From positions 2,160,001 through 2,192,000 of the forward strand of contig NZ_CP074694.1 in NCBI RefSeq assembly GCF_018398935.1: 32,000 nucleotides of DNA, given 5' to 3'. Both the position numbers and the translations under genes were made by a program. A model generated the notes under the pieces. It was not told the origin of the DNA. It worked only from the letters and a program-made list of their open reading frames with translations, and made no database searches. Source of the stretch: Telmatocola sphagniphila (GTDB taxonomy: Bacteria > Planctomycetota > Planctomycetia > Gemmatales > Gemmataceae). Below, piece by piece: positions 5,272 through 30,980 of the stretch (the first letter of the stretch is position 1; each line of letters opens with the position of its first letter).

Positions 5272-5322
5272 CGCTTAGGACGGCAGCTACGGATAGCCTG
5301 TAACCGATTTGAGGTAACATCC

Positions 5323-7602
5323 ATGCGTTGGTGCTTGTCTCTTCTCTTCCTGACTCTTTGCTTCCCTCTTTTCGCACAAGAGGGCAAACGGTACGCCGTA
5401 ATCGTGGGAATAAACGAGTACCAGCACTCCAAGCTGGGAAAGTTGAATTGTGCCATCAACGATGCGACCGACCTGTCCCAGATTCTCAGTAACGACGGCT
5501 ACTCCGTGACCTTGTTGACTAACGACACGGCCACCAAACCGACTAAAGCTGATATTGAGAAGGCCATCGAAAGCACTTTGCAGAAAGCCAAGTCGCAGGA
5601 CACGGTGCTGATTGCCGTGTCGGGCCACGGCCTGCAATTCGACAAAGAAGCTTATTTCTGCCCGATGGATGCGAAACCCTTTCCGGATGAGACCAAAACT
5701 TTGGTCTCTTTGAACGGCCTCTACAAGCAATTCGACAAGTCCTTTGCGGGCGTGAAGGTCCTGTTCGTGGATGCCTGCCGGGATGACCCCGATCCGGCCC
5801 GCAGCTCCGGCAAAGGGATCGACGCGGATAGTGCTCCTGAACCGCCAAAGGGTGTCATGGCCATGTTCAGTTGTTCTGCTCGCCAGCGATCCTATGAGGA
5901 CCTGGAGCGCAAGCATGGGGTGTTCTTTCACTATGTGATCGAAGGACTGACTGGGAAAGCGACGAATGCCGACGGGGAAGTGACCTTTACGCTTTTGAAC
6001 GACTATGTGGCCAAACGAGTGAATCCGCGTGTGCTGGAGCTTTACAAAGGCCCCCAACAGATGCCGAACATGGTGGCAAAAACGGTTGGGGCCTCCCCGG
6101 TATTGGTGAACGAAGAAAGTAACAAAATCGCCCGGGAACTTCGCGAGCGCATTCTCTTTGGTCCTGGCCCCAAAAAATACCTGGAGGAACACAAGTCTCG
6201 CATACCTGCCTGGAAGCAAGCCGCTGAGAAGGGAAACCCCGCCGCGATGACGATGGTGGGAGGGATCTATTCTTTTGGAGTCGATACGGAGATTAACCGT
6301 TTGGAGGCACTGAAATGGTACCTTAAGGCGGCGAACTTGGGTGAAAGCTCAGCGATGCATAATTTGGGGGTGAGTTATTTGAATGGACAGGGTGTCCCCA
6401 AGGATGAAATAGAAGCTCTGAAATGGATCCAAAAATCCGCCGAGGCAGGGAATCCTGCGGGAATGTATATGTTTGGGAATTTGAATGAATTTGGCAGAAC
6501 TGGACTAAAGAAAAACGATTCCGAGGCTGTTAAATGGTACATGAAAGCTGCCGAAGCGGGCCAACCGTTGGCGATGAATAAGCTCAACATCATGTTTAGC
6601 AGCGGACGAGGCGGATTAACTAAAGACGAAAGACAAGCTGTTAAATGGACCAAGCAATCTGCCGAGTTGGGGAATTCCTTAGGAATGTTAAACTTAGCTA
6701 TCATTTATGAAGAAGGGCTTGGGGGACTGGCAAAAGATGATACTGAAGCCGCCAAATGGTACAAAAAAGCCGCTGAAGCGGGTAATCCTCCAGCTATGAA
6801 TGATTTAGGAGTGATGTACTTAAGCGGTCGTGGTGGACTGAAGAAGGATGAAACTGAAGCCGCCAAATGGTATAAAAAAGCCGCTGAGGCAGGCCAATCA
6901 GTGGCGATGTGTAACCTTGCTGAAATGTACCAGGCTGGTTTAGGAGGATTACCCAAAAACGATACTGAAGCCGCCAAATGGTATAAAAAAGCCGCTGAGG
7001 CGGGGAACGCTCGAGCGATGAATGAACTAGGTGTAATGTATGAGTACGGACGAGGTGGATTAAATAAAGACGAACTCGAAGCTGTCAAATGGTTTAAAAA
7101 AGGCGCTGAGGCTGGGAACTCCCTTGCAATGAATGATCTAGGTGTAATGTATGAGTACGGACGAGGTGGATTAAATAAAGACGAACTCGAAGCTGTCAAA
7201 TGGTATAGAAAAGCCGCTGAGGCAGGTAACGCTCGAGCAATGTCCAATCTCGCATTAAAGTATGAATCGGGTCGTGGAGTTGCAGGAGACGAAGCCGAAG
7301 CCTTGAAATGGCACAAGAAAGCTGCTGCTGGAGGAATTGCGGACAGCATGACTCAGATCGGTTATATGTATGCAAATGGGCTCGGTGGTTTAGTCAAGAA
7401 TGATGTGGAAGCAGTCAAATGGTTCTCGAAAGCCGCGAATGCTGGATTGGCGCTAGCTATGTATAACCTTGGAATACATTACTGGAATGGGCGCGGAGTT
7501 CCTCAAGACAGATCAGAGGCGATAAAATGGTATAAAAAAGCTGCCGATAAGGGGTATAACGACGCAAAGGAGAGGCTGAAAGAACTGGGTGTGAATCCAT
7601 AA
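5323..7602 (+). CDS. secreted caspase-family (peptidase C14) protein fused to about 12 Sel1 (SLR/TPR-like) repeats
   Basis: 759 aa. The N-terminus MRWCLSLLFLTLCFPLFAQE looks like a signal peptide. The caspase fold signature is KRYAVIVGINEY, His in AVSGHG and Cys in FVDACRDDP. From about nt 6208 to 7563 there are 12 repeats of the type AxKWYxKAAEAGNxxAMxxLGxMYxxGxGxxKD. GAGG lies 8 nt upstream of the ATG. Confidence 0.9.
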   Translation: MRWCLSLLFLTLCFPLFAQEGKRYAVIVGINEYQHSKLGKLNCAINDATDLSQILSNDGYSVTLLTNDTATKPTKADIEKAIESTLQKAKSQDTVLIAVSGHGLQFDKEAYFCPMDAKPFPDETKTLVSLNGLYKQFDKSFAGVKVLFVDACRDDPDPARSSGKGIDADSAPEPPKGVMAMFSCSARQRSYEDLERKHGVFFHYVIEGLTGKATNADGEVTFTLLNDYVAKRVNPRVLELYKGPQQMPNMVAKTVGASPVLVNEESNKIARELRERILFGPGPKKYLEEHKSRIPAWKQAAEKGNPAAMTMVGGIYSFGVDTEINRLEALKWYLKAANLGESSAMHNLGVSYLNGQGVPKDEIEALKWIQKSAEAGNPAGMYMFGNLNEFGRTGLKKNDSEAVKWYMKAAEAGQPLAMNKLNIMFSSGRGGLTKDERQAVKWTKQSAELGNSLGMLNLAIIYEEGLGGLAKDDTEAAKWYKKAAEAGNPPAMNDLGVMYLSGRGGLKKDETEAAKWYKKAAEAGQSVAMCNLAEMYQAGLGGLPKNDTEAAKWYKKAAEAGNARAMNELGVMYEYGRGGLNKDELEAVKWFKKGAEAGNSLAMNDLGVMYEYGRGGLNKDELEAVKWYRKAAEAGNARAMSNLALKYESGRGVAGDEAEALKWHKKAAAGGIADSMTQIGYMYANGLGGLVKNDVEAVKWFSKAANAGLALAMYNLGIHYWNGRGVPQDRSEAIKWYKKAADKGYNDAKERLKELGVNP
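7027..7204 (+). repeat. 67-bp perfect direct repeat (7027-7093 and 7138-7204) inside the Sel1 array, period 111 bp
   Basis: I compared the two copies letter by letter: ctaggtgtaatgtatgagtacggacgaggtggattaaataaagacgaactcgaagctgtcaaatggt occurs twice. Flanking Sel1 units (for example 6747, 6857 and 6968 gaagccgccaaatggta[c/t]aaaaaagccgctga) are also near-identical at the DNA level. Confidence 0.95.
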
Positions 7603-11345: not shown

Positions 11346-14300
11346 ATGCCGCCTGGATCTCGACTACCCAAGCCTATTCAACTTGGAGTTTGGTTTTTTC
11401 GAGTCCATGGTCTGTCCCTGGTTGCATTACTTTCGCTCCTGTTCGTACAAATACCTCTGATATTTTTTTTACGCGGCGAACACACTCCGCACTTACGCAG
11501 GGAGGGATCTGCCATTAACAGAACATCATTGCTCCTACTCTTACTTCCTGGATTATTACTGTCTGGGTCAATCAACGCGGCCGACCCACCTCTCTTGCTT
11601 CAACGACCGACAGTCAGTGAGAAGCTGATTGCGTTCTCTTATGCGGGCGATCTGTGGACAGTCGACAGATCTGGAGGAGACGCACGACGTCTGACCGCAG
11701 GCGTCGGTTTGGAAACCTACCCCGTCTTTTCTCCCGACGGCAAAATGGTTGCATTCGCCGGGGATTATGAAGGTAATCTCGATGTTTATGTCATTCCTTC
11801 AGAGGGAGGAATTCCCAAGCGGTTAACCTATCATCCCGATTCGGATGCTCCGGTCGGCTGGACGCCCGACGGGAAGAACATCCTTTTTCGTTCGGGTCGC
11901 ACCAGTTCGGCTCGCTTCCTGAAGTTGTTCTCGGTGCCGGTTGAAGGGGGACAACCCTCCGAACTTCCCCTTCCCATGGCGGAGGATGGCTCGCTCTCCC
12001 CAGATGGTAAGAAGATCGCTTATGTGCCACTCTCCAACAAACCGCCGTTCCCGGGTAGCTTCCGTCCGGTGCGAAATTATCGCGGTGGAACGGCCTCACC
12101 GGTATGGATCGCCGATCTGGCGGATTCATCGATTACCAAAGTGCCGCGAAAAGATTCCAATGACTTTAATCCCATGTGGATTGGCGACCAAATTTACTTC
12201 CTCTCCGATCGCGACGGACCGACGACGCTGTTCGCTTACAATATCGCGTCCAAAGAAGTCAAACGAGTGCTGGCACCGGAAGCCCAGGATATTAAATCCG
12301 CTTCCTCTTGCGGCAACGCAATCGTTTATGACCGATTCGGATCGGTGCACTTATTCGACGTGACAACGGGCGTTACAAAACCTGTCTCCATTCGTATCAA
12401 CGCCGATCTCCCAGGAGTGCGGCCCAAGCTGGAGAAGGTCGCCAAGAACATCCAAAAAGCGAGCTTGTCTCCAACCGGAGTTCGTGCTTTATTCGAAGCC
12501 CGCGGTGAAGTGGTAAGCGTACCCGTCGAAAAAGGGGATGTTCGAAATCTGACGAATTCAACCGGAGTCGCGGAACGTGATCCGGTATGGTCTCCCGATG
12601 GAAAAGCCGTGGCCTATCTCTCCGACGAGTCCGGCGAATATAAGCTCCACATTCGTTCGCAGAGCGGATTCGGGGAAGTGAAAAAATTCACGTTGGGTGA
12701 AAGTCCCTCGTTTTATTACAACCCCGTTTGGTCGCCCGATAGCAAACGGATCGCCTATCAGGATAAACGGCAAAACCTCTTTTACATTGATCTTGAAACC
12801 GGTAAGTCGACGAAGGCCGATACGGGACCCTATGACGATGATGTGCCTTCTGCGCCCGTTTGGTCGCCCGACGGACGCTGGCTGGCGCATTCTCGACTTC
12901 TGAAAAACTACCTCTATGCGGTCTTTTTACACTCCCTTGAGACGGGGAAGACCAGCCAGATTACCGACGGGATGAGCGACGCGAAACATGTCGCTTTCGA
13001 CAAGAGCGGGAAATACCTCTTTCTGACCGCCAGTACCGATATCGGCCCGGCAGTGGGCTCGGGTATGTCCAGCCTGAATCGTCCGGTGACAAGAAGCGCC
13101 TACGTGATAGTACTCAATAAGACCGATCACTCTCCGCTAGCTCCCGAGAGCGATGACGAAAAAGTCAAACAGGAAAAGGAAAAGAAGGAGAACGATAAAG
13201 AGAAGAAAGAAGGCAGCAAAGAGCTGCCTAAGGTTACCATTGACTTGGATGATATCGATCAGCGAACGCTCTCCCTACCCGTACCGGCGAAAAATTACAT
13301 CGGTTTGCTCTCATGCAAAGCGGGCTCGATTTTGCTTCTCGAAGCGCCGGTCGTTTTGAATCCTGACGATTCCAGCCTGAACCCGGACTCTCCGCCTTTG
13401 ATCGTTCATCGTTTCGATCTGGAGAAGAAAAAGATGGAAAAGTTGATCGAAGGAACGACCCGAGTTGCCGTCTCTTTCGATGGGGAAAAGATGCTGTATC
13501 GGTTAGGAGATAACTGGTTTGTGACTGGAACAGGACAACCGGCGAAGCCTGGCGAGGGAGAATTAAAACTCGATAAGGTCGAAATTTTGGTCGATCCCCG
13601 AGCTGAGTGGCGACAAATCTACCGAGAGGTTCTGCGACTCGAACGCGACTTCCTCTATGATCCCCACTTCCATGGCTACGACCTAAAAGGCATGTGGGCC
13701 AAACATGAGCCTTATTTGAATGGATTGGGAAGTCGTTACGAATTGAACTACTTGTTAGACGAATTATTAGCCGGGCTGAGCTTGCAGCATGTCTACTTGA
13801 CGGGAGGTGACGTACCGCGTCCGGAAAATCGAAAATGTGGTCTTCTCGGCGCGGATTATCGCGTTGAGAATGACAGACACCGGATCATCAAGGTCTATCG
13901 CGGGGAGAGTTGGAACCCCAGCTTGCGAGCTCCTCTCACACAGCCCGGCGCGCAAGTCAAGGAAGGAGAATATTTGTTAGCTGTGGAGGGGAGGGAGCTT
14001 CGCGGAGAGGACGAAATCTACCGTCTATTTGAAGGGACCGCCGGAAGGCAGGTCGTACTAAAAGTTGGCCCATCGCCTGACGGAAAAGAGAGTCGGGAGA
14101 TCACGGTCGTACCGACCTCAAGCGAACGGGCTTTGCGGAACTTGGCCTGGGTCGATGCCAATCGTCGGACGGTGGATCGATTGACGGAGGGCCGGGTAGC
14201 TTACATCTACCTCCCCGACACGCAATCGCAAGGTTATACGCGTTTCAACCGTTACTTTTTTGCCCAGGCCGGGCGCGAGGGAGCAATCGTCGACGAACGC

Positions 14301-14825
14301 TTCAACGGGGGCGGATTACTGGCCGATCACGTTATCGATTACTTGCGACAGCCCATCCGCAATTATGCGAGCACTCGCGAGGGGGCCGACCAGGCATTCC
14401 CTACTTCAGCTATTCCCGGACCGAAGGTGATGCTCATCAACGAACAAGCGGGATCCGGAGGCGACTACCTGCCCTATACATTCCGCCAGTCTAAGCTTGG
14501 GCCTCTGGTGGGCAAGCGAACCTGGGGTGGTCTCGTAGGCATAGGGGGTTATCCAGAGCTTATTGATGGAGGAAGCGTAACGGCGCCCCGTTGGGGCATT
14601 TGGTTTCCCAACAGCCGCTGGGACGTAGAAAACCGGGGCGTTGCTCCTGATATCGAAGTAGAATTCGATCCCCGGATCGCCAGACAAGGGAAAGACCCCC
14701 AGTTGGAGAAAGCCATCGAAATCGTATTAGAGGAGTTGAAAAAGAGTCCGGTCAAGCGCCCGAATCGGCCCCCTTTCCCAAACTATTACGAGCCCGGCTT
14801 GAAAGAACGATCCGAAGGGAAATAA
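11346..14825 (+). CDS. tricorn protease homologue (peptidase S41 family with beta-propeller/PDZ modules)
   Basis: 1159-aa ORF. PTVSEKLIAFSYAGDLWTVDRSGGDARRLT, VFSPDGKMVAFAGDYEGNLDVYV and repeated SPDGK blades are present. So are an acidic/Lys-rich insert (DDEKVKQEKEKKENDKEKKEG) and a C-terminal S41 region (IVDERFNGGG...INEQAGSGGDY). The true start is uncertain (see finding). Confidence 0.9.
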   Translation: MPPGSRLPKPIQLGVWFFRVHGLSLVALLSLLFVQIPLIFFLRGEHTPHLRREGSAINRTSLLLLLLPGLLLSGSINAADPPLLLQRPTVSEKLIAFSYAGDLWTVDRSGGDARRLTAGVGLETYPVFSPDGKMVAFAGDYEGNLDVYVIPSEGGIPKRLTYHPDSDAPVGWTPDGKNILFRSGRTSSARFLKLFSVPVEGGQPSELPLPMAEDGSLSPDGKKIAYVPLSNKPPFPGSFRPVRNYRGGTASPVWIADLADSSITKVPRKDSNDFNPMWIGDQIYFLSDRDGPTTLFAYNIASKEVKRVLAPEAQDIKSASSCGNAIVYDRFGSVHLFDVTTGVTKPVSIRINADLPGVRPKLEKVAKNIQKASLSPTGVRALFEARGEVVSVPVEKGDVRNLTNSTGVAERDPVWSPDGKAVAYLSDESGEYKLHIRSQSGFGEVKKFTLGESPSFYYNPVWSPDSKRIAYQDKRQNLFYIDLETGKSTKADTGPYDDDVPSAPVWSPDGRWLAHSRLLKNYLYAVFLHSLETGKTSQITDGMSDAKHVAFDKSGKYLFLTASTDIGPAVGSGMSSLNRPVTRSAYVIVLNKTDHSPLAPESDDEKVKQEKEKKENDKEKKEGSKELPKVTIDLDDIDQRTLSLPVPAKNYIGLLSCKAGSILLLEAPVVLNPDDSSLNPDSPPLIVHRFDLEKKKMEKLIEGTTRVAVSFDGEKMLYRLGDNWFVTGTGQPAKPGEGELKLDKVEILVDPRAEWRQIYREVLRLERDFLYDPHFHGYDLKGMWAKHEPYLNGLGSRYELNYLLDELLAGLSLQHVYLTGGDVPRPENRKCGLLGADYRVENDRHRIIKVYRGESWNPSLRAPLTQPGAQVKEGEYLLAVEGRELRGEDEIYRLFEGTAGRQVVLKVGPSPDGKESREITVVPTSSERALRNLAWVDANRRTVDRLTEGRVAYIYLPDTQSQGYTRFNRYFFAQAGREGAIVDERFNGGGLLADHVIDYLRQPIRNYASTREGADQAFPTSAIPGPKVMLINEQAGSGGDYLPYTFRQSKLGPLVGKRTWGGLVGIGGYPELIDGGSVTAPRWGIWFPNSRWDVENRGVAPDIEVEFDPRIARQGKDPQLEKAIEIVLEELKKSPVKRPNRPPFPNYYEPGLKERSEGK

Positions 14826-14836
14826 GTTATATCGGT

Positions 14837-14882
14837 TCGAGGTCGTGTGGATGCGAAGGGAATGGCATTCACACGACCTCGA
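14837..14882 (+). terminator. long stem-loop 12 nt after the tricorn stop
   Basis: TCGAGGTCGTGTG (14837-14849) pairs perfectly with CACACGACCTCGA (14870-14882): 13 bp with a 20-nt loop. There is no U-tract, so it may act as a terminator or as an RNA-stability element. Confidence 0.4.
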
Positions 14883-14907
14883 TAACCCTTTACTAATCGA
14901 GCTTTTC

Positions 14908-14928
14908 TATAAAAAGGGTCGCACCCTT
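14908..14928 (-). terminator. weak minus-strand terminator-like hairpin
   Basis: In minus sense it reads AAGGGT-gcg-ACCCTT followed by TTTATAG. The stem is short (6 bp) and the U-tract is short. Confidence 0.25.
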
Positions 14929-15024
14929 CGGAGTTAGATTGCCGACGTTCTGTTCCCTAATAAGGGATGGTTCTTGAGATGTTTCAGAAGCCGAAGGAAC
15001 TAGACTTCGAAACCCTTCGATATC

Positions 15025-15869
15025 TCAACTTTGAACTACTTCTGCGATTGGCTTGGAGGGCAGACAACTTATCGCCCACCCTGCGGCTGTTCTTGGACAT
15101 TGCGAAGCGATAAGTCCGCACAATTCCCATGTAGTGAGTTTTCTACAGCCCAGTTCAATTTGTCTAGTTTTATCCGGGTTGAGGTGACCTCTGTTGAACT
15201 TTTTCTTCAGGACGGATTGCGAGCCTCGGAATTCGTTTGGGCCGGGTGATCGTTCGGGAAGCCGTTGGCGATCTACCCAAGATCTGATAATAGTCCCGGC
15301 TACACTTCGAATACCACTACCTCGAAGTAAGCGCAATCCAGCAATGGCTCGAGGCGCCGGAACACGCACTCCTCGAAGTAGGTCTGAGACCACCAGAATA
15401 CTGGGTATTTTTGGAAAAGGGCGGGACATAGCCGGATTTCATTCGACTTCGGACTAGCATAAGGTCGCGGCACCTGAATTGGTTTGGCTTCTGGGAATTC
15501 GGTAACGGCTTCAGTGAGACGCGTCACCACCATCTCATAGAACTGTCCCACGGACTTGCACTGTTCCTCCGAAGCCTGTGGCAGGTAGCCGCGAAAACCG
15601 GCAGTAGTCCAGGCACTCTTCGCGCCACGCCACCAAGTTGTTCGCGGGGCAAAAGAGTTCTTCCGTTTCATCCTCCGGAGTCGGCCATGCGTACCGGAAC
15701 GAGATCGAAGACGCGGCGGTCCTGAGGGAGCGAGACTAAGGCTGGGGGAGGCCGCAGTCCAGAGAACTGGCCAATTCCTCCAGGTCAGACTGCTCAAGTG
15801 GCGGCGTGATCTCAACAGCAAAGTCCTCGCGCCGATCGCGCGTGCCTTACTTTCAACGCCGAACGGCAC
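15025..15869 (-). pseudogene. multi-frameshifted decayed coding region (contains a J-domain-like DYYQILG motif)
   Basis: Two overlapping Arg/Ser/Pro-rich ORFs (134 and 189 aa) do not look like real proteins. A third minus frame reads SRDYYQILGRSPTAS (15295-15275) with no start codon. Another frame reads LKKKFNRGHLNPDK. At about 15825-15740 a stop-interrupted frame reads DFAVEITPPLEQSDLEELASSLDCGLPQP*. Confidence 0.25.
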
Positions 15870-15879
15870 TAACGATTTT

Positions 15880-16593
15880 TTACTTCTTCTCTCGTAATGG
15901 AGAAATCATGCCATTTAACTTCGAGACTTTTGCCTCCAATTCCTTAACCAGCTTCTGAAAATCCGCACGCGGACGAAGAAGTTCTAAAGAGGCAGCCGAC
16001 TTCAAACGACCTACCCCGGTAAACCCCTCGGCAATTGCTTGGTGGAGCGATTTCATTGCCTGCTCAACTTCGGCTTTTCCTTCCTCAGTAGTAATAATTG
16101 AGGCTTCGTTTGATGCGATTGCCGCAAGTTCAGAATGGTAGCAGGCGAGGTTGAAATAATCGCGCGGGGCGAGCATTGGCAATTGCTCCACCAATTCAAT
16201 AGCACGGCGGATTGACCTGACTGCCTCTTTGGGTTGCCCCAAACGGCGCTGGACGGCCCCCAGTCCTGCGAGCTTGGATGCCAGTTCAATCCGCAGCCAA
16301 GCGATTGGAAGTTCGTTAACGTTGATCTTCTCGATCAGAGATAGCGCCTCTTGGCAATTCATCAAGGCCTGTTTGAGATTCCCGCCGGCGCGGAGTATCT
16401 GACCGGATTTAACAAGGCTGCGCGCTAATAGATAGTTTAATTGTGAACTGAAAGCTTCATCAGCTTTAGCATGTTTCAGGAAATAGGATTGCAATTTTTC
16501 GTAGAATTTTAGGGCTTCCGCAGAATTCCCCAGCTGCACGCATACATCTCCCAGTGTGTTGTAGCATTCTCTTAACGCGGGCAATGCCCGCAA
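15880..16593 (-). pseudogene. detached C-terminal TPR-like portion of a Ser/Thr kinase sensor protein
   Basis: 237 codons. The only start is a TTG three codons after a stop (TAA 16603-16605). The repeats are of the same style as the kinase C-terminal region. The ending is typical, by memory, of planctomycete sigma-linked kinases: ...RDYFNLACYHSELAAIAS...AIAEGF...LELLRPRADFQKLVKELE. Confidence 0.65.
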
Positions 16594-16610
16594 CCCTAGG
16601 TATTAACGAA

Positions 16611-16669
16611 CATGGCGTCGGTTTATCCAATGGAAGTAACCACACAACCGTTGGAGACTCGACGCCATG
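16611..16669 (+). promoter_or_regulatory. 10-bp inverted repeat enclosing the start codon of the 515-aa ORF
   Basis: CATGGCGTCG (16611-16620) and CGACGCCATG (16660-16669) form a perfect inverted repeat with a 39-nt spacer. The second arm contains the ATG at 16667. Confidence 0.3.
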
Positions 16670-18214
16670 CCGACGATCAACTCATTTACGAAGAAGTTCG
16701 CCGATTCCATTCTATCCGTTCTGGAATGTTACGACCGCGTGATTTTCAAAGGGTATCTTCCCTTTTTCAAGAATGGAGATCTCCACCGTCTCTGCGATAG
16801 CGGACTGGGCATGCGTCGCAAAGACTTCGTTCCCTTCCTGGAAGGTCTGTCCGAAGAACTGGTGGAACATGGCAAACGAGTCGCCGCCGAAGCCGGTGCT
16901 CCTTATCGGTTTCTCCAAGGGGAGCACACCAAAGAGCAGATCATCCGCGAGGAGATTGCCAAACGCAGTCTAAAGGAAGGACTGGTCGCCGTGCTGTGCT
17001 GCATGGAAACCTGTCGCGGCGTCAAGCTGCGTCCCGGCAAGGATCGACCGGAATTGTACTTCACGTCTCGCCCGCAACGCGTCGTCTATTTCTATTCTCT
17101 CGATCCCGAGTTCGGACTGATCCATGTCCGCATCCAAACCTTCTTTCCTTACAGCGTCCAAGTCTACGTCAACGGTCACGACTGGCTGGCCCGCCAGATG
17201 AACGAAAAGCAGATCGGCTTCCTTCAAAGCGATAATGCCTTCGTTCAACTCGACAATCCCGAAGCCGCTCAACGCCTGGCCGATCGCTTTGCCCATTTGA
17301 ATTGGATCAAAATTCTCGACCGTTGGGTCCGCCGGGCCAATCCGCTATTGAAAAAAGACTGGCTGAACCGCTGCCAATACTACTGGGTGATCGATCGAGC
17401 CGAGTACAGCACGGACGTTTTGTTCCGAAGTCGTGAAGACTTACAAGCTCTTTACCCGCGTCTGGTCGATCACTCGATTCAACAGTTCTCTGCCGACGAC
17501 ATTATGAAATTCCTGGGACGCAAGCTCTATCCTCAATTCGACGGAGAAATTCTTACTCTGGGCCGCAAGAAACGGGCACCGGGCACACGCGTCAAGCACC
17601 GCATGAAAGGCAATTGGCTGAAAATGTACGACAAATTCGAACGGATTCTCCGCATTGAAACAGTAATCAACCAGCCAGGCGAGTTCCACGTCCGCCGTCG
17701 ATGCATCCGCAAAGGGGTCGAAAAAATGGCCTGGTGCCCCATGAACAAAGGCGTGTCTAATTTCTATCGCTACCTCGAAGTCGCCCGCGCTTCGAATCGA
17801 CGCTATCTCGAGGCTTTGGCCGTTGTGGACGCTCCTTCGGTCACCGTGCGTCAACTCGACCAACTGAGTCAACCCGTCTCTCTGGGTAACCGGAAGCGAC
17901 GCGGCTTGAACTTGATGCACGCCGAAGAACAGAAGCTATTCCTGGCTGTCTTATGCGGCGATAATCGCATCAATGGGTTTCGCAACCACGACATCCTGAA
18001 AGCGTTGAACGAGCCCGCCCGGGATGCCGCTGAACGGCGTCGGCAAACGCAACGAGTCTCGCGACAATTGGGAAGGTTGCGCGCTCATGGATTGATTCGG
18101 AAAGTCCCGCGGGCGCATCGCTATCACGTGACGGATAAAGGCAATGCGGTGATGGCGGCGGCCGTTCGTATCCGCATCAAAGAGTTCCCGAAAGAACTCA
18201 AAACCGCGATTTAA
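16667..18214 (+). CDS. 515-aa protein of unknown class with a winged-helix-like C-terminus
   Basis: It is a long clean ORF with protein-like composition. Notable stretches are GNWLKMYDKFERILRIETVINQPGEFHVRR and the C-terminal QLGRLRAHGLIRKVPRAHRYHVTDKGNAVMAAAVRIR (MarR/wHTH-like). I see no DDE, HUH, Ser- or Tyr-recombinase, RT or RuvC/Zn-finger motif by eye. Confidence 0.8.
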   Translation: MPTINSFTKKFADSILSVLECYDRVIFKGYLPFFKNGDLHRLCDSGLGMRRKDFVPFLEGLSEELVEHGKRVAAEAGAPYRFLQGEHTKEQIIREEIAKRSLKEGLVAVLCCMETCRGVKLRPGKDRPELYFTSRPQRVVYFYSLDPEFGLIHVRIQTFFPYSVQVYVNGHDWLARQMNEKQIGFLQSDNAFVQLDNPEAAQRLADRFAHLNWIKILDRWVRRANPLLKKDWLNRCQYYWVIDRAEYSTDVLFRSREDLQALYPRLVDHSIQQFSADDIMKFLGRKLYPQFDGEILTLGRKKRAPGTRVKHRMKGNWLKMYDKFERILRIETVINQPGEFHVRRRCIRKGVEKMAWCPMNKGVSNFYRYLEVARASNRRYLEALAVVDAPSVTVRQLDQLSQPVSLGNRKRRGLNLMHAEEQKLFLAVLCGDNRINGFRNHDILKALNEPARDAAERRRQTQRVSRQLGRLRAHGLIRKVPRAHRYHVTDKGNAVMAAAVRIRIKEFPKELKTAI

Positions 18215-20649
18215 TAAAATACACAAAAAGTTTGCGCAAAAAGCGCAAAAGATAAGAAGAAAGACTCTAAAGGCTCCCGTACGGTAACGAGACTGGAATC
18301 GGATTTGTCAATGCGTTCACAGTTTTCCATGACTTGCAGAAGTGCCTCCTTCGCTTCCGCGGACCGTCCCATATCCGATAGTGCTGAACCGATGTCGCGT
18401 TGGATAAACGCTAGCATAATCTGAAATTTTGTGACCGCGGGGTAAGTGTCCGCCAGGTTCTTCGCGATGGCAGCCGCTTTCCTCAAAGATGGGAGAGCCT
18501 GTGCGGGTTTCCCCACATCCAATAAAGTGTCGCCGATGTAATAGTCGCTTATTCCCAGTGAGTACTGGTACCTCGAAATGTCGGAATGTGTACTTGCCAG
18601 CTTATTCCAAATTACGTGAGCATTATCATGGTTCGCTAACGCCGGCTGCCATTTACCAGCTTCCCAAAGTAACTTACCTGATTGCTCCAAAGTTCGAGCC
18701 AACTCTTGTTGAAGTTCCTCGGAGGTGGGATTGACCTTGGATAACTTCCTCAAGATGGCCGCGGCCATATCAGTTTCGGTCGACGCCTCCGAAGGCCTTT
18801 GCTTTGACCTATGAACCATGGCGAACCGCGTTAAGCTTTGTGCCACGACGACTTGGACCGCTTCCGTCGGAGAATCCTTTGCAAGTGCTGCGGCCGTATC
18901 GTGTTGTTCTCTAAAATTCAGCATCGCGCCGTCTAGATCACCTGTGAAAAGCAATATATAACCCACCGCACCCAAGCTTCGGGCTACATTAAGCTGAGTC
19001 TTCAAATCCGACCCTGGCGCAGCTGCCAGATTCCTCCGCATTTCCAGCGCCTTGCGATGTAGAGCAAGTGCCTTTGGCTTGGAACCGATTTGATCGGTTA
19101 GATCGGCAAGTTGAAAATACCCGTCCGCCAGGAGACTCCGCGATTTAGGATCGACTTCTCCTTCCAGAAGCTTTTCCATATCGCCATAGAACTCACCGGC
19201 TTCTTTCAAAAGCTGGTTTCGCAGCTCCTTGAATTGTCCACTCTTAAGCAATAAGTCCTCGCCGACGCCACTGTGCAGTTTAGCAATCGCTTTCTGGGCT
19301 AGTTCGAAGCGTTTCTCCACCTTGACTTGCTCGGCAACCAATTCAGTGTTCTTGGCTGTGAGGTCACGGTTGGCCTGGAGTTTCACCACTAACACTCCCA
19401 TAACTCCCGCCACGACGAGCGAAGTAATCACTGATGCGGTCGTCAAAGCTACGCGATTCTTTCTCACGAACTTGCGAAGACGATAGCTTCTGCTGGGCGG
19501 CACCGCAAGCACCGGTTCGCCTGCCAGATAGCGCTGTATATCCAAGGCAAAGCCATTCGCCGTCTCATAGCGGCGGGATCGGTCCTTTTCCAAGGATTTC
19601 ATGACGATCCAGTCCAATTCGCCCCGCATGAGTTTTTTTAAATGGGCAGGGTCGGTCTGCCGGCCAGCGGCCAAGGAGGGAAGCGTGTTAGTCGAGCTCA
19701 GACGTGTGCTCGGGCGGGGCGGTTCTTCCTCGCGAATCAGACGTCGAATTTCCTCCCAGGCCGCTTCTTTGAAGCGGTTCTTTTCCAGCGGTGTGGTCCC
19801 GGTCAACAACTTGTAGAGGAGCACTCCCAGCGAATAAATATCCGACCGCGTGTCGACGTCCAAGTTGTTGAGTTGCGCCTGCTCGGGAGACATATATAGC
19901 GGCGTTCCAAGTACTGTTTCGTGAGCGGTGTGAAGGGTTCGCTCCGTCAGCGATTGGTGCATGGCTTTAGCCAGTCCAAAGTCAATAATCTTGGGGACCG
20001 GCTTATCATCGTAGGGCGCGACCAGAATATTCGAAGGCTTGAGATCGCGATGAATGATTCCTTTGTGATGGGCATGCTGGACGGCTTGACACACTTGTGC
20101 AAATAACTGCAAACGTTCGGGGATGCTGAGTCGGGCGGTATCGCAAAACTCGGTGATCCGAATCCCTTTGATGTACTCCATCACGAAGTAGGGTCGGCCG
20201 GTCTCCGTCAAGCCCCCGTCGAGTACCTTGGCGATATTGGGGTGGTCCATAAGGGCCAAGGCCTGCCGTTCCCCTTCGAAGCGGGCCAACACAGACTTCG
20301 AATCCATTCCTGCCTTGATGAGCTTAAGTGCGACCTTTCGGCGCACCGGTTGCGTTTGTTCCGCGACCCAGACGGTTCCCATACCTCCTTCGCCAATCGG
20401 CTCCAGCAGCTTGTAGCGACCGGCGATGATTGTACCCGATTGCTCCTTCGGTAGGTACGCCCCGGTTTCTTCGGGATCGCCGGGCTCCGGTCGATCCAGG
20501 ATACCACGAACCCGGGCATCAGCTTCCAAGAGCAATTGAACTCGAGCGCGGAGCAGGGTGTCCGCCCCACAAGCTTCATCGAGAAACGCCTGCCGCTCGA
20601 TAGGGGAATTCTTTTCCAACGCCGCTAGAAATAACGCTTCTTCGGTCAT
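18211..20649 (-). CDS. membrane Ser/Thr protein kinase with TPR-like sensor region, C-terminally truncated and ending in a foreign tail
   Basis: I prefer ATG 20649 (MTEEALFLAALEKNSPIERQAFLDEACG..., a typical N-terminus), giving 812 aa. Kinase motifs are GEGGMGTVW, HRDLKPSNILV, DFGLAK and SPEQ. There is one TM helix (ALTTASVITSLVVAGVMGVLVV), then degenerate TPR-like repeats. The last about 20 aa (EPLESFFLSFALFAQTFCVFY*) are read from the inserted DNA. Confidence 0.85.
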   Translation of the reverse strand: MTEEALFLAALEKNSPIERQAFLDEACGADTLLRARVQLLLEADARVRGILDRPEPGDPEETGAYLPKEQSGTIIAGRYKLLEPIGEGGMGTVWVAEQTQPVRRKVALKLIKAGMDSKSVLARFEGERQALALMDHPNIAKVLDGGLTETGRPYFVMEYIKGIRITEFCDTARLSIPERLQLFAQVCQAVQHAHHKGIIHRDLKPSNILVAPYDDKPVPKIIDFGLAKAMHQSLTERTLHTAHETVLGTPLYMSPEQAQLNNLDVDTRSDIYSLGVLLYKLLTGTTPLEKNRFKEAAWEEIRRLIREEEPPRPSTRLSSTNTLPSLAAGRQTDPAHLKKLMRGELDWIVMKSLEKDRSRRYETANGFALDIQRYLAGEPVLAVPPSRSYRLRKFVRKNRVALTTASVITSLVVAGVMGVLVVKLQANRDLTAKNTELVAEQVKVEKRFELAQKAIAKLHSGVGEDLLLKSGQFKELRNQLLKEAGEFYGDMEKLLEGEVDPKSRSLLADGYFQLADLTDQIGSKPKALALHRKALEMRRNLAAAPGSDLKTQLNVARSLGAVGYILLFTGDLDGAMLNFREQHDTAAALAKDSPTEAVQVVVAQSLTRFAMVHRSKQRPSEASTETDMAAAILRKLSKVNPTSEELQQELARTLEQSGKLLWEAGKWQPALANHDNAHVIWNKLASTHSDISRYQYSLGISDYYIGDTLLDVGKPAQALPSLRKAAAIAKNLADTYPAVTKFQIMLAFIQRDIGSALSDMGRSAEAKEALLQVMENCERIDKSDSSLVTVREPLESFFLSFALFAQTFCVFY
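18231..18249 (-). terminator. intrinsic terminator oriented against the host (minus-strand) transcript
   Basis: In minus sense it reads TTTGCGC-TTTTT-GCGCAAA followed by CTTTTTGTGTATTTTATT. In plus sense the tail is A-rich, so it is not a terminator for the 515-aa gene. Confidence 0.5.
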
Positions 20650-20728
20650 GACACGTTTCTCCGGCGATCGACTCGTAGGAGCCGTCCCAACTATAGGCGC
20701 CCTCGGAGCTGTAAACCCGTCAGGTAAT

Positions 20729-21295
20729 TTAAGATTTTTTTTCCTCGAGCATGGCCGTGTACAGCCAGGCTCGGGCATACCGCCAGCCGCGCTCGGCCGT
20801 CGAAAGAGAAATACCCAGATGTTCGGCGATTTCCGGTAGAGTCATTCCTCCGAAAAATCGTAATTCCACGAGTTGAGCTTTGACCGGGTCATGGAGGGCG
20901 AATCGTTCCAAGGCCTCGTGCAGAGCCATCAAATTTTCTTCGGGAATCCCAGTTGCGAGAGCGTCAAGATCGACAGCCACGCGTTGCAGGTCGCCGCCGC
21001 GCTTCAGCCGGTCTTTCCGGCGGGCCGCTTCAATGAGAATGCGCCTCATCGCTACCGCGGCGGCGGCGAAGAAATGCCCTCGGCTAGCGAATTGTCGTTC
21101 CCCAAGCGGGCCCACCAAGCGCAAGTAGGCCTCGTGAACGAGGGCGGTCGCATCGAGAGTTTGGCCGGGGGCTTCGTTCGCCATGCGCGTCGCGGCGAGC
21201 TTACGAAGCTCCTCGTACACGAGTGGAAGGAGATCCGAGGCGGCCCGTCGATCCCCGTTATGTGCCCATTCAAGCAATTGAGTGAGATTCGACAT
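20729..21295 (-). CDS. ECF sigma factor of the kinase-associated (TIGR02999-like) type
   Basis: 188 aa. TQLLEWAHNGDRRAASDLLPLVYEELRKLA...GQTLDATALVHEAYLRL and the C-terminal HTH MTLPEIAEHLGISLSTAERGWRYARAWL are present. The gene lies 79 nt upstream of the kinase on the same strand. Confidence 0.9.
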   Translation of the reverse strand: MSNLTQLLEWAHNGDRRAASDLLPLVYEELRKLAATRMANEAPGQTLDATALVHEAYLRLVGPLGERQFASRGHFFAAAAVAMRRILIEAARRKDRLKRGGDLQRVAVDLDALATGIPEENLMALHEALERFALHDPVKAQLVELRFFGGMTLPEIAEHLGISLSTAERGWRYARAWLYTAMLEEKKS

Positions 21296-22385: not shown

Positions 22386-23193
22386 GTGTAGTGTCTCAGA
22401 AATAGCGTTACTTTTAGCTCCTTTTTGTAGTTACTCTATAGAGAAGGAGAAAACCCATGAAAGTCGCGCTGCCAATCTTACTTTCTGACGAGGAACGACA
22501 AACGTTGACTTCTTGGTCTCGGGGACGAAGTACTCCCGCTCAGCTGGTCCTGCGGGCGAAGATCATACTCGCGGCGGCCGCAGGTGTACGGAACAAGGAC
22601 ATTGCTCAGCAGTGCGGCACGTCGAAACCCACAGTGGCGCGCTGGCGGACCCGATTAGCGAAGCTGCGTTTGGCGGGTGCCCGGCCGTTGCGGCACTCTG
22701 ACTCACGATTACATGGGTCATGGCACCACCACTCTCTTCGCGGCTTTGAACGTGGCGGAAGGCGTAGTAATTGGCGAATGCATGCCACGACATCGACACC
22801 AGGAATGGATCAAGTTTCTCAAACGGATCGATGCTGCCACCGATCCGGCCTTGGACTTGCATTTGATCGTGGACAAACCTGCCACGTACAAGCATCCCAA
22901 AGTTCAGCGTTGGCTCGCCCGGCATCCTCGATTCCACATGCATTTCACCCCCACGAGCAGTTCCTGGATGAATCTGGTGGAACGCTGGTTTCGCGACTTA
23001 ACAGACAAACGACTGCGTCGAGGCACATTTCGATTTGTGCCGCAATTAATCCAGGGGATTGAAGGCTACATCGATCATCACAATAACACAGGAAAGGGAT
23101 TCCAGTGGACCGCCAAAGCCGAGGCTATTCTGGAGAAAGTCCGCCGGGCTAGAGCTACCTTGGATAAAACACCTTCTGTGTGAGGCACTACAC
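22386..23193 (+). mobile_element. IS630-family element with an internal deletion (non-autonomous)
   Basis: The imperfect terminal IRs are GTGTAGTGTCTCAGAAA... (22386-) and the reverse complement of ...TGTGTGAGGCACTACAC (-23193). A TA duplication flanks it (22384-22385 and 23194-23195). At 808 bp it is about 0.4 kb shorter than typical family members. Confidence 0.75.
22457..23183 (+). pseudogene. IS630-family transposase, HTH region fused out of frame to the C-terminal DDE part
   Basis: ORF1 reads [72 protein letters not shown]. It then switches frame at about 22675 to ...[23 protein letters not shown]...[44 protein letters not shown]. The segment carrying the first catalytic Asp (about 130 codons) is missing. 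Confidence 0.8.
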
Positions 23194-28172: not shown

Positions 28173-29462
28173 TCAGCCGTTGCTCAGAGAGACGCGGGCG
28201 ATAATGGTAGTTCCGTTTCCGGGTGTAGATTCAATTGTCAAGGTGCCGCCGATTAAAGTTAGCCGCTCCTGCATTCCGCGTAGACCCAGTCTTCCCAGGT
28301 GCGCATCGGAAGATTTCATGGATTCGGAGTCGAACCCGATGCCATCATCTTCGACTAATGCCACCGCCTGATTTGGCGTTCGCTGGAGAATCACACTGAC
28401 ACGATGTGCTTTTCCATGTTTCAGGACGTTCGTCAGAGCTTCCGTAACCACGCGATAGAGACTTGTCTCAATAAGCGAGTCGAGTCTCTGGCCATCGAAA
28501 CCCGTTGAGTGGAAATCGATTTCAATTGAGGATTGTTCGGACCAAGCTTCGACGTAATTTGCCAGTGCCGCCTGAAGGCCCAGATCGTCCAGAGCCGTGG
28601 GGCGAAGTTCCATGGCCAGCTTATGGCTTTCGCGGCCTATCTGATCGTTGAGTTCCCGAAGTCTCACCAGATGAGGCCGGTACGGGGATGGGTCAACGGT
28701 CGAATCTTCGAGTGCTTTAAGGCCCAGGCCCAGCGCCGTTACCAGTTGCCCCATCTGATCGTGAAGATCGCGAGAGATGCGACGTCGTTCTTCTTCCTGG
28801 GCGGTTCCCAACCGCCGAAGTAGATCCCGGCGATCCGATTCGGCCGTTTCGCGGATCCGGATTTCGTTTCTCAGTGTATCGTTTGCCGCGGCCAGCTCCG
28901 CGGTCCGCTCCGCCACCCGTTCCTCGAGTTGATCGTGGGCTTCCCTCAACTTGGCGTTAAGGGACTCCGCTGCCTCCACCAATTCATGCTGCCGGATTGT
29001 CGAAAGCAGAAGTTCCTCATTCATTCCCATGGATTGTCGACGGAAATGCGCGATCTCCGTTGCATCCGTTACCTGTATCATGACACCCGTCGGTTGCTCG
29101 ACCTCTCCGAGTATTGCCCACACCGCATACGACCAGTAAACCGTTCGCGGATGCGACTGGCGATGTTCCTGCTCTATAAGGCACTCGTGCGTCCCCGTAT
29201 GGAAAACGCGGTCCAGCAGGGCGATGCATCCGTTAGCTTCCCCCTCCGGTACTGCATCCGCGAACGAGAAACCGATAAGCTCCGACCGGTCTCTACCGAC
29301 GAGGCGAGCGAAGGCGGGGTTCAGATAAGAGACGATGTGGGTTGATCCATGAACGGCGACCATGGGCAATGGGGATCTTTCAGACAGATAACGACAGAGC
29401 TTCGGGAGATCGGGCGATTGCCTACCAGCTTCAAATATTGGTTCCCGATCCATGTATCGCAC
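28173..29462 (-). CDS. PAS-domain sensor histidine kinase, HisKA_3 (NarX/DesK) type
   Basis: 429 aa. It has a PAS-like N-terminus (PMVAVHGSTHIVSYLNPAFARLVGRDRSELIG), a coiled coil, an H-box (EEERRRISRDLHDQMGQLVTAL), an N-box (EALTNVLKHGKA), G1 (DDGIGF) and G2 (GLRGMQERL..IGG). The GTG at 29462 abuts the KaiC-like stop; an ATG lies 3 codons later. Confidence 0.9.
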   Translation of the reverse strand: MRYMDREPIFEAGRQSPDLPKLCRYLSERSPLPMVAVHGSTHIVSYLNPAFARLVGRDRSELIGFSFADAVPEGEANGCIALLDRVFHTGTHECLIEQEHRQSHPRTVYWSYAVWAILGEVEQPTGVMIQVTDATEIAHFRRQSMGMNEELLLSTIRQHELVEAAESLNAKLREAHDQLEERVAERTAELAAANDTLRNEIRIRETAESDRRDLLRRLGTAQEEERRRISRDLHDQMGQLVTALGLGLKALEDSTVDPSPYRPHLVRLRELNDQIGRESHKLAMELRPTALDDLGLQAALANYVEAWSEQSSIEIDFHSTGFDGQRLDSLIETSLYRVVTEALTNVLKHGKAHRVSVILQRTPNQAVALVEDDGIGFDSESMKSSDAHLGRLGLRGMQERLTLIGGTLTIESTPGNGTTIIARVSLSNG

Positions 29463-30980
29463 CTATTCGTTTTGATCGGGCTCGTCTGGGATTTCGTGAA
29501 GGCCCTGAATGCCAGGTTTGATTGGTTCCGGGATGCCGGTGATAAGGCCGTGATAGCCCATCAGGCGTTCGCCGATCCTAAAGCCCTGGGAAGTAATCTC
29601 GTACTCGCAAATATCTTTACTGTGGTCTCCCGCCCGCATTTTCACCACCATTAAAACTTTGCGAAGCTGTCCATTAATCTCGACATAGCGTAATCGAATG
29701 ATGTCGTCGCTCAGAAAAGAAATCGAATAAGGGCTGAGTGCCAGCTCGGTGAAAGTTTCAGCTACTTCAACAGTACTCACAATCGTGACCCCGACCCGAG
29801 TCAATGCGCCGATCATCCGATAAAGCGACTCCCGAAAATCGGTTCGAAACGCGGGAGCGAGCGCCATCTCGAAGCCCGCGAGAGAATCGATGACTACTCT
29901 TTTTGCACCCGTCTTTTCCACCGCGTCGAGAATCTCTCGCATCGTCTCGTCAACCGATAAATCGAGCGGTCGCAGGTAAATGATGTTCAGCTTGCCCTCC
30001 TGCTGAAACTTATCGAAATCCATGCCGAGATTAGCGGCTCGCCCCGCATATTCCTCTGGACGTTCCTCGAAGATTGCGACGATTCCCGGCTCCCCCCGGC
30101 GGAGTCCTTCCGCAATGAACTGGGTGGCCAATACAGACTTTCCCGATCCCGATGGCCCCGCGATTAGCAGACTGTCCCCTTCGGGAATTCCGCCTTGAAG
30201 CAAGGCATCCAACTGGGCAATTCCGCAAGGAAGCCGCCTGCGATTGCGGGCTTTGACGGCTCGACCGGTCAGACCGAAAGTGCGAGGAAAAGCTTGCAAA
30301 CCATCGTTAGTGATACGGAAAGTATGAAGGCCGGGGACCGAGGTCTGACCACGCAGTTTCATAACTTGAAGTTTCCGGACGATGGAGTTTCGTTCGACCT
30401 GCTGGAACAGCCAGTACAGACCATCGGCCACGGTGAACACGGGGTTATCCCGAATTTCCCCATCGGTGTACTCGCCGATGAGAAAAGTCGTTGCCTGCCA
30501 GCTGGTGAGGTGCAGTGCAAGCCGCTGTATGAACCCTTGAAGTTCCAATTCCGCCGTGCCTCCTTGAGCTCTTCGGATTACGGTTCGGAAGGAATCCACT
30601 ACCACCAGGCCGGGGCTGGCTGCCTCGACTTCCTTGACGATTTCCTGCAATACCGCATTAAGATCTTTTTCCAGAACGACATGGCTCAGATTGATGAACC
30701 GTACGGCCGAGTTGAGTTTAGCGGGGTCGAAAAAGTTGAACTGCTGCTGGTATCGCAGCATCTTGATGGCCGGTTCGCCCAGTACCGTGAAGTAGAGAGC
30801 CGGGCGCTCCGGAGTCGCGTTCGCGAATATGACCTGGTGCGCGAGAGTGGTCTTACCGCAGCCGGGCGCGCCAGCAATGATGTTGAACGAATACTCGGGC
30901 AATCCCCCACCGAGAATTTCATCCAGACCCGGAACACCGGTAGGAATTTTTCGGATGATTACTTTATCGTCGGCGTTCAT
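29463..30980 (-). CDS. KaiC-like double RecA-domain ATPase
   Basis: 505 aa with two KaiC-type halves. Each begins with the motif G(V/I)..LD..L.GG.P and a Walker A (GAPGCGKTT; GPSGSGKSV). The C-terminal half carries SISFLSDDIIRLRYVEINGQLRKVLMVVKMRAGDH. This aligns to the KaiC CII phospho-site region as I remember it. Confidence 0.9.
   Translation of the reverse strand: MNADDKVIIRKIPTGVPGLDEILGGGLPEYSFNIIAGAPGCGKTTLAHQVIFANATPERPALYFTVLGEPAIKMLRYQQQFNFFDPAKLNSAVRFINLSHVVLEKDLNAVLQEIVKEVEAASPGLVVVDSFRTVIRRAQGGTAELELQGFIQRLALHLTSWQATTFLIGEYTDGEIRDNPVFTVADGLYWLFQQVERNSIVRKLQVMKLRGQTSVPGLHTFRITNDGLQAFPRTFGLTGRAVKARNRRRLPCGIAQLDALLQGGIPEGDSLLIAGPSGSGKSVLATQFIAEGLRRGEPGIVAIFEERPEEYAGRAANLGMDFDKFQQEGKLNIIYLRPLDLSVDETMREILDAVEKTGAKRVVIDSLAGFEMALAPAFRTDFRESLYRMIGALTRVGVTIVSTVEVAETFTELALSPYSISFLSDDIIRLRYVEINGQLRKVLMVVKMRAGDHSKDICEYEITSQGFRIGERLMGYHGLITGIPEPIKPGIQGLHEIPDEPDQNE

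Follow-up and report, generated by a model that had tools for sequence, protein, structure and literature searches.

Among the described systems closest to the mobile element reported here are insertion sequences of the IS200/IS605 group (e.g. IS608), which follow a 'peel-and-paste' scheme. They lack terminal inverted repeats, leave no evident target duplication, carry imperfect hairpins near both ends and form right-end-to-left-end junctions. A conserved tetranucleotide is found on their left flank only (TTAC in the case of IS608), and a related tetranucleotide closes the right end. Their enzyme is a HUH Y1 nuclease of ~150 aa, often accompanied by TnpB. Also close are the Rep_trans proteins (PF02486), which include RepC/RepD of pT181/pC221, RstA of CTXphi and the MOBT relaxases of Tn916, ICEBs1 and ICESt3; known members start replication or conjugative transfer. 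In RepC/RepD the nucleophile Y191 lies on a beta-strand of a TATA-binding-protein (TBP)-like sheet between R189 and K193, and D46, D142 and E214 bind metal. Hairpin DNA is nicked in a Mg/Mn-dependent reaction that leaves a 5'-phosphotyrosine adduct. The Rep_trans motifs are N' (D), I (RxD), II, III (YxK) and IV (RxE). RepSNJ2, an archaeal rolling-circle initiator, is a TBP-fold relative of bacterial Rep_trans proteins with a MarR-like domain after the catalytic one, and its residues E25, Y283 and E303 are essential (PMC13107129). Here we analyze a 32,000-nt stretch of the Telmatocola sphagniphila genome (contig NZ_CP074694.1, positions 2,160,001 to 2,192,000, forward strand; hereafter, the window). 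In it a Ser/Thr kinase gene is interrupted by a 1695-bp element, the only gene of which, ORF515, encodes a putative transposase of 515 aa.

An ECF sigma-linked kinase gene is interrupted at codon 794

The minus strand of the window carries, in a row, a gene for an extracytoplasmic function (ECF) sigma factor, an open reading frame (ORF) encoding a kinase with a membrane segment and tetratricopeptide repeats (TPR), and a TPR-only ORF. The sigma gene (20729..21295, 188 aa) belongs to PF07638 (Sigma70_ECF, E 1.3e-58). The kinase ORF (18211..20778) encodes a Pkinase domain (residues 122-377), gives TPR hits and ends in ...SSLVTVREPLESFFLSFALFAQTFCVFY followed by a stop codon. Its likely start is the Met at 20649, in agreement with the N-termini of homologues. 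In front of the first residues of the TPR-only ORF (15880..16593, 237 aa), at a distance of four codons, lies an in-frame stop. A sequence-only reading of the window had described the sigma gene and the kinase gene as they are found here, had called the 237-aa ORF start-less and assigned it to the C-terminus of the same kinase, and had proposed that an insertion of ~1.7 kb split the gene. The interruption of one kinase gene and the origin of the 237-aa ORF are borne out by alignment of the rejoined protein with full-length sigma-linked kinases.

When 16575..18269 is removed, the two halves join into a kinase of 1024 aa. Residues 6-1012 of this protein align with residues 1-1012 of a 1018-aa homologue (P0134) at 61% identity, and the identity to a second homologue (P0129) is 62%. 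The alignment is collinear from end to end, with neither gap nor overlap at the junction. A homologue search with the rejoined C-terminal region returned uninterrupted kinases of 975-1018 aa that cover 96-100% of it. In the two related loci that encode P0134 and P0129, L024 and L023, a PF07638 sigma gene (79% and 54% identical to that of the window, respectively) directly precedes one uninterrupted kinase gene of 1018 aa and 1014 aa. Thus, these relatives do not have three separate genes, and the 237-aa ORF does not belong to a different kinase. The halves are collinear, the inserted sequence recurs with the same ends at unrelated sites (see below), and the uninterrupted gene is found in the same neighbourhood elsewhere. 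Taken together, the alignments show one membrane Ser/Thr kinase gene of ~1024 codons, paired with an ECF sigma gene and interrupted at codon 794 by an element in the opposite orientation.

The kinase 5' fragment (18270..20649, minus strand; Pkinase and TPR hits) contains native codons 1-793 and the first base of codon 794. It holds the kinase domain, the hydrophobic membrane segment (residues 401-422) and the first 372 residues of the TPR region. The 3' fragment (15880..16574, minus strand; TPR hits) starts with bases 2-3 of codon 794 and continues through residues 795-1024, including TPR repeats and the conserved C-terminus, to the stop codon; it is collinear with the C-termini of 15 full-length homologues. 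The remaining part of the kinase ORF (18211..18269) is of element origin. Its translation, ..L-ESFFLSFALFAQTFCVFY followed by a stop, is read from bases that are conserved in unrelated copies of the element. Accordingly, the annotated product (P0126, 812 aa) consists of the catalytic domain, the membrane segment, 372 residues of the TPR region and 18 terminal residues encoded by the right end of the element. As the region after the membrane segment comprises 602 residues, of which 372 remain and 230 are missing, the earlier statement that the 'sensor half' has been amputated goes too far.

Pairs of ECF sigma and Ser/Thr kinase genes are a recognised regulatory type, for which kinase-associated ECF groups have been listed (PMC7826278). 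The pairing is conserved across the window, L023 and L024. Kinase-controlled ECF sigmas (ECF43; EcfP-PknT of Vibrio; EcfK-PknS of Xanthomonas) have the same arrangement, with the sigma gene immediately upstream of a gene for a membrane Hanks-type kinase. They differ in that the window sigma is placed by Pfam family PF07638 alone and its kinase lacks the last 230 residues.

Boundaries, flanks and hairpins of the element

To define the insert, the window was aligned with 13 independent copies from metagenome contigs (45-82% protein identity), one of them from a Verrucomicrobiota genome bin. The block conserved among the copies runs from C-Y-T-A-A-C-G-C-G-G (window 16571) to ..G-A-C-T-C-T-A (window 18269), and the flanks beyond it are unrelated. 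Four candidate excisions were scored against the 15 full-length kinase homologues. Excision of 16575..18269 (1695 bp) gives ..VTVREPLRECYN.. / ..SSLVTVREPLRECYNTLGDV.., without a gap relative to any of the 15. Excision of 16591..18279 (1689 bp; ..VTVR-ALPALRECYN..), as originally suggested, is in frame but inserts two residues compared with all 15 homologues. A 1698-bp excision leaves a one-residue gap, and excision of exactly the 1699-bp conserved block results in a frameshift and a TAG stop. Since only the removal of 16575..18269 is gap-free, 'EPL' belongs to the native kinase and 'ALPAL' derives from the end of the element. The expected uninterrupted allele has the join ..CTTA/AAGG.., with the coding strand predicted as ..GAGCCTTTAAGAGAATGC... 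At other metagenome loci, where flanks are short and some contigs are chimeric, the corresponding excision is uninformative as to the restoration of reading frames; the junction of L019 falls on a stop codon.

The element thus occupies 16575..18269 on the plus strand, with the left end ACGCGGGC.. and the right end ..GAAAGACTCTA. Terminal inverted repeats were found neither in the window copy nor in the aligned copies. Conservation outside the element is one-sided. The left flank is the tetranucleotide CTTA (16571..16574; consensus CYTA), native kinase sequence and the proposed target and left cleavage site, with C, Y, T and A present in 12 of the 12 independent non-junction flanks. By contrast, the right flank varies among the copies, including the base directly after the right end. 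A Logan contig (L009, run SRR14506984) is 1699 bp long and corresponds to window 16571..18269 at 99.8% identity; it begins exactly at CTTA and includes no base of the right flank. The right terminus of the element is CTCTA (18265..18269), the proposed right cleavage site, which has the form [C/A][T/A]CTA in all copies.

Both ends carry a subterminal hairpin. The left one, GCGGGC-AAT-GCCCGC (16577..16591; DNA fold -7.6 kcal/mol, z -2.9), starts two bases inside the left end, and its stem is kept in all copies with swaps between GC and CG pairs. In copies from Burkholderiaceae it is replaced by a compensatory GAGGC/GCCTC version. The right one, TTTGCGC-AAAAA-GCGCAAA (18231..18249; DNA fold -8.1 kcal/mol, z -3.9, matched by 0 of 200 shuffles), lies 19 bases inside the right end, and the palindrome TTGCGC..GCGCAA is conserved in other copies. 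A third structure is a long stem in the 5'-leader of ORF515, CATGGCGTCG ... CGACGCCATG (16611..16669), with a 10-nt perfect inverted repeat. Its RNAalifold consensus has 11 pairs, five of them with double compensatory changes, and the 3' arm ends in the start codon of ORF515. The stem probably either occludes translation initiation in read-through transcripts or represents a single-strand DNA structure. No Rfam family was matched in the window.

In two contigs from different samples, L017 and L018, the right end is joined straight to a left end (..GAAGACTCTA/ACGCGGC..; that is, ..GACTCTA/ACGCGG..). The assembly of L017 is circular (1697-bp unit, ends overlapping by 99 bp), whereas in L018 an integrated copy adjoins the left end of another copy that differs slightly from it, i.e. 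a tandem. The same kind of boundary is found in the Burkholderiaceae. In three independent insertions from this bacterial family CTA precedes the left end, and the boundaries read ..CTA/ACGAGGC-TCC-GCCTC.. and ..GGAATCTA(G)/. The end pattern, consisting of a flanking (Y)TA, an ACGNGGC hairpin and a ..TCTA end, is repeated across two phyla at ~24% protein identity.

Copy number and spread of the family

The window contains a single copy of the element. ORF515 (KIH39_08705) belongs to a cluster of near-identical 515-aa T. sphagniphila proteins and is one of seven locus-tagged copies (among them KIH39_07880, KIH39_08140, KIH39_15420 and KIH39_23860) in the finished 6.59-Mb genome, which has at least seven copies of the gene. 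The length and identity of L009 are what an assembler yields from a collapsed multicopy repeat. The insertion into the kinase gene is probably recent, since the ORF of the element is intact, the collapsed repeat from this genome matches the element at 99.8% identity, and no other defect is present in either half of the kinase.

The family is large. More than 3,645 close protein clusters of ORF515 were found, mostly on contigs of 1.7-2.3 kb, and 6,436 representatives of 50%-identity clusters match ORF515 at E <=1e-3, nearly all of them 500-530 aa long. When metagenomes were scanned for a 23-nt left-end pattern, no more than two contigs matched, both already among the copies described here. In the plasmid collection, homologues with 23-33% identity are present in Burkholderia, Caballeronia, Paraburkholderia, Rhodococcus and Mycobacterium, where they are annotated as 'hypothetical protein' or 'ArsR family transcriptional regulator'. 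All are on records of 56 kb to 2 Mb. Three plasmids of Burkholderiaceae (Burkholderia, Caballeronia and Paraburkholderia) share a unit of ~1.8 kb at 93-100% nucleotide identity in unrelated flanks. No relatives were found in the phage set. These data show that the 1.7-kb insert is a multicopy mobile element of a large unnamed family with relatives in several phyla.

Several individual copies deserve mention. Stretches of 600-780 bp of the ORF are 74-76% nucleotide-identical between Burkholderia sp. YI23 (L026) and Rhodococcus plasmids, and this sequence similarity suggests that the family moved between phyla fairly recently. On Paraburkholderia phytofirmans pOLGA1 (L021), a 33%-identical homologue at 3989..5503, annotated as 'ArsR family transcriptional regulator', sits between genes for a 'c-type cytochrome' and a 'cytochrome C', which might be another split or separated gene pair; no obvious ACGNGGC/..CTA pattern is present beside this ORF. 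A Mycobacterium riyadhense plasmid (L022) has two tandem paralogous homologues of ~540 aa at 2947..6367 beside IS4 transposase genes, and four matching places in total. In the metagenome copy L016 (1..1500) the canonical left end is replaced by other sequence right after an IS66-family transposase gene, suggesting that one element has been truncated by another. In L007, the right flank (from ~1891) codes for the central part of a Ser/Thr kinase catalytic domain (..QHAHQKGIIHRDLKPSN.., as judged by eye in the alignment). Another kinase gene may therefore have been hit by the same family, with the qualification that the contig is possibly chimeric, as L008 shares only its left flank.

ORF515 and the Rep_trans nucleases

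ORF515 (16667..18214, plus strand), an intact ORF that had been overlooked between the two kinase halves, has no match in Pfam or NCBIfam and no informative one in PHROGs. The 93 diverse relatives scanned to E 10 are likewise without a family hit. In particular, these 93 members have no hits to DDE, DEDD, HUH, serine or tyrosine recombinase families. Only a sub-threshold winged-helix signal is present at residues 459-501, and a profile search of PDB sequences returned MarR-type winged helices only.

An AlphaFold2 model built on 100 diverse sequences has a pLDDT of 94.4 and a pTM of 0.89. It predicts two successive alpha/beta units with long antiparallel strands, which would form a TBP-like core (residues ~1-400), followed by winged-helix domains (~404-515). 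A Foldseek search with the model against PDB found nothing at E <=1e-3; the only high-probability matches are MarR-type winged helices, and archaeal TBP is matched with a probability of 0.66. Against BFVD, the good matches are TBP-like proteins of giant viruses with probabilities of 0.97-1.0, one of which is A0A2N9QVX7. No RNase H-like match was found in either PDB or BFVD.

The strongly conserved residues of the family lie on the predicted strands. In the alignment of the 100 sequences, D23 (100%) is on the first strand, and E246 (99%) and D250 (98%) are on the first strand of the second unit. These are followed by K319 (98%), Y321 (99%) and K323 (95%), position 322 being D or N in 89% of the sequences, and by R329 and E331 (both 100%) on the next strand. 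Thus, D23, D250, K319-x-Y321-x-K323 and R329-x-E331 occur in the same order as the residues of the Rep_trans active site, an agreement at the level of motifs. In an hhalign comparison of residues 230-345 with residues 130-225 of RepC, D250 is paired with D142, K319-Y321-K323 with R189-Y191-K193, and R329-E331 with R212-E214; hhalign of the N-terminal pieces pairs D23 with D46.

The likeness to Rep_trans proteins therefore comprises a predicted TBP-like curved sheet, an acidic residue on the first strand of each half in the order of D46, D142, Y191 and E214, a candidate Tyr on a strand in [K/R]-x-Y-[D/N]-K followed by R-x-E, a separate helix-turn-helix DNA-binding part and a DNA substrate that bears hairpins. 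The differences are also clear. No sequence-family membership is detectable, the core of ORF515 has ~400 aa with helical insertions versus ~200, and the Tyr and Glu motifs are 10 residues apart versus 23. The loop of the pT181 origin hairpin is ACTCTAAT, and the end-to-end junction of the element is GACTCTAACG; this resemblance is a lead only. Rep nicks within that pT181 loop.

The architecture resembles that of the Rep-Arvir/RepSNJ2 group (DUF7845, PF25227), which follows the same plan, with an N-terminal TBP-fold catalytic domain of 300-400 aa and a MarR-like winged helix after it. RepSNJ2 residues E25, D207, Y283 and E303 are at positions similar to those of D23, D250, Y321 and E331 in ORF515, and in RepSNJ2, too, a hairpin is the cis-acting site. 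The two proteins also behave alike in fold searches, with only winged helices found in PDB and viral TBPs, including the same entry A0A2N9QVX7, in BFVD (PMC13107129, 2026). RepSNJ2, however, is a replication initiator of archaeal viruses and plasmids, whereas the ORF515 family is bacterial, chromosomal and multicopy and has no PF25227 hit. Based on the conserved residues and the predicted fold, we consider it somewhat likelier than an even chance that ORF515 works like a Rep_trans nuclease, which is a statement about function and not a claim of family membership.

A model of transposition and its alternatives

The disruption of the kinase gene by a mobile element is shown by the alignments above, and the reading as a whole, in which a tyrosine nuclease of the Rep_trans type would transpose the element as single-stranded DNA, is in our view probable; the nuclease part is what we infer. 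The winged-helix domains would bind both subterminal hairpins on one strand. The nucleophile would be Y321, located on the TBP-like curved beta-sheet between K319 and K323, and the metal ion would be bound by D23, D250 (or E246) and E331. Single-strand cleavage would follow YTA in the left flank and ..CTA at the right terminus. Ligation of the right end to the left end would then yield a circular single strand, and the donor flanks would be resealed. Finally, the circle would be reinserted 3' of another CYTA, without duplication. Such a mechanism would account for the conservation of only one flank, the absence of inverted repeats, the sequence of the junctions and the restoration of the kinase upon removal of exactly 16575..18269. 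Tandem copies would be explained by the right end TCTA, which is itself a near-target.

In this model, an enzyme unrelated to theirs would follow the scheme of the IS200/IS605 elements. The element shares with that group all the features of ends and flanks listed at the outset, including the conserved tetranucleotide on the left (CYTA here) and the related one that closes the right end, but differs in hairpin-to-end distances and in its enzyme, a single 515-aa protein with a TBP-like predicted fold. ORF515 has no HUH motif and no Y1_Tnp or OrfB hit, and Y1_Tnp and OrfB hits are likewise absent from the 93 relatives. The element also differs from IS110/IS1111, since no DEDD transposase hit (PF01548/PF02371) was obtained for ORF515 or the 93 relatives, and from IS630/Tc1-mariner, as it has neither a DDE_3 hit nor inverted repeats, TA on both sides being the sole common trait. 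We regard it as a hairpin-ended insertion sequence of the single-strand type with a different enzyme, with a substantial chance of a new transposase class. The specific proposal that ORF515 represents a new catalytic class of prokaryotic transposase, namely, a Rep_trans/TBP-fold tyrosine nuclease that mobilizes a hairpin-ended insertion sequence through single-stranded intermediates, is more tentative, and we place it a little below an even chance.

A number of observations weigh against the reading favored here. Whole-profile hhalign of ORF515 against RepC gave a probability of 0.1, and the sub-region E-values of 0.04 (0.043) and 0.02 are not significant alone. The failure of the whole-profile comparison is due in part to the RepC alignment, which has almost no diversity: a search seeded with pT181 RepC gave only proteins that are at least 86% identical, so that the Rep_trans profile is shallow. 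None of the 93 members hits PF02486 or PF25227 even at E 10, and no Rep_trans structure is among the top 50 Foldseek matches in PDB. Y141 and Y143 are also invariant and either could be the nucleophile. At the DNA level, the presence of TA on both sides of the element is compatible with a 2-bp TA duplication, and tandem insertions, instead of circles, could underlie the right-to-left junctions. Among the metagenome contigs, several are probably chimeras formed across the repeat (L004/L005/L006, as well as L007/L008, in which one flank is shared and the other is not). Finally, the insertion sites examined in T. sphagniphila number one.

The most serious alternative, which we nevertheless consider unlikely, is a TA-duplicating transposon of the IS630/Tc1-like type, with ORF515 being a divergent enzyme of a known class or a TBP sheet that merely binds DNA, and the residues in common with Rep_trans a coincidence. 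It is consistent with the TA that flanks every copy on both sides, with the single TA of the junctions and with the resemblance of some targets to the palindrome CTTAAG, and the relationship to Rep_trans is, as noted, not significant by profile comparison. Yet it explains neither the asymmetric ends, which lack terminal inverted repeats, nor the asymmetric flanks, in which C and Y are conserved at positions -4 and -3 on the left in all 12 cases with nothing comparable on the right. The lack of hits to DDE, DEDD, HUH, serine and tyrosine recombinases among the 93 members and of an RNase H-like match for a model with a pLDDT of 94 also argues against an enzyme of a known class. Coincidence, in turn, has to account for invariant acidic, Tyr and basic residues that are arranged on the sheet in the Rep_trans order.

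Less probable still is that the 1.7-kb unit is mainly a tiny rolling-circle replicon, a Rep gene with a hairpin origin that occasionally integrates. The circularly assembling 1697-bp contig L017 and the many homologues on contigs of about unit length would fit such a replicon, and ORF515 is more like replication initiators than transposases. However, unit-length contigs are expected from the assembly of any multicopy repeat, and the junction of L018 lies inside a larger contig as part of a tandem. Seven locus-tagged chromosomal copies in one finished genome, together with integrated copies in unrelated flanks in chromosomes and large plasmids of several phyla, argue against it. Relatives are absent from the phage set and from small plasmids, the smallest plasmid record with a hit being 56 kb.

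The original proposal of an insertion at 16591..18279 with CCCG as a 4-bp target-site duplication is very improbable. CCCG is indeed present at both 16587-16590 and 18276-18279, and the 1689-bp deletion is in frame. Nevertheless, the left CCCG and the 16 bases to the left of it are conserved in copies from unrelated sites and phyla, whereas 18270-18279 is ordinary flank that differs in every other copy, and the join adds two residues relative to all 15 homologues. Since the left CCCG lies inside the element's own hairpin and the ten bases on the right are plain flank, the apparent duplication is a coincidence. Finally, the view that no gene is disrupted and that the region simply has three normal genes, for a short kinase, a hypothetical protein and a small TPR protein, follows the genome annotation (the 812-aa kinase P0126 and a hypothetical protein) but can practically be dismissed given the collinear end-to-end alignment with homologues of 1014-1018 aa, the lack of a credible start for the TPR ORF outside the element and the kinase tail encoded by the end of a repeat.

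Neighbouring genes

An unrelated IS630-type transposase is encoded on the plus strand at 22457..23183, 1.2 kb beyond the sigma gene, as two overlapping ORFs (HTH_23/HTH_29, then DDE_3). The gene is probably frameshifted or uses programmed frameshifting. Unlike ORF515, it does give the expected family hits. An IS630-type gene also adjoins the ORF515 element in the metagenome locus L004. On the other side, between the gene for a tricorn-type protease (11346..14825) and the kinase 3' fragment, there is a region of ~1 kb (14826..15879) with weak overlapping ORFs and a local G+C content of up to 0.61; it has no Rfam match. Farther away, on the minus strand (28173..30980), a gene for a KaiC-like double-domain ATPase is followed directly by a gene for a PAS/HisKA_3 histidine kinase, an arrangement that resembles a KaiC-linked signalling module.

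Implications

For T. sphagniphila, the insertion matters locally. The kinase of the sigma/kinase pair is now without 38% of the region after its membrane segment, and this disruption is an ordinary consequence of transposition. More generally, the element is compact and widespread but is unrecognised by Pfam, NCBIfam and PHROGs, and consequently its insertions go unnoticed. It also fragments assemblies, as most of the homologues are on unit-length contigs. If the proposed class is real, it would be an abundant family of soil and peat bacteria, spanning at least five phyla, and everywhere annotated as 'hypothetical' or 'ArsR regulator'. The combination of a short sequence-defined target (CYTA) and hairpin-guided ends would make the mechanism directly testable and possibly reprogrammable.

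In the literature searched, which lies outside most subscription journals, no TBP-fold or Rep_trans-type transposase was found, and Rep_trans proteins are described only as replication initiators and conjugative relaxases. Should ORF515 prove to be a nuclease of the Rep_trans type, this superfamily would have its first transposase, and IS200/IS605-style transposition would have evolved convergently on an enzyme scaffold of unrelated origin. Like the HUH superfamily, the Rep_trans superfamily would then serve in replication, conjugation and transposition alike.

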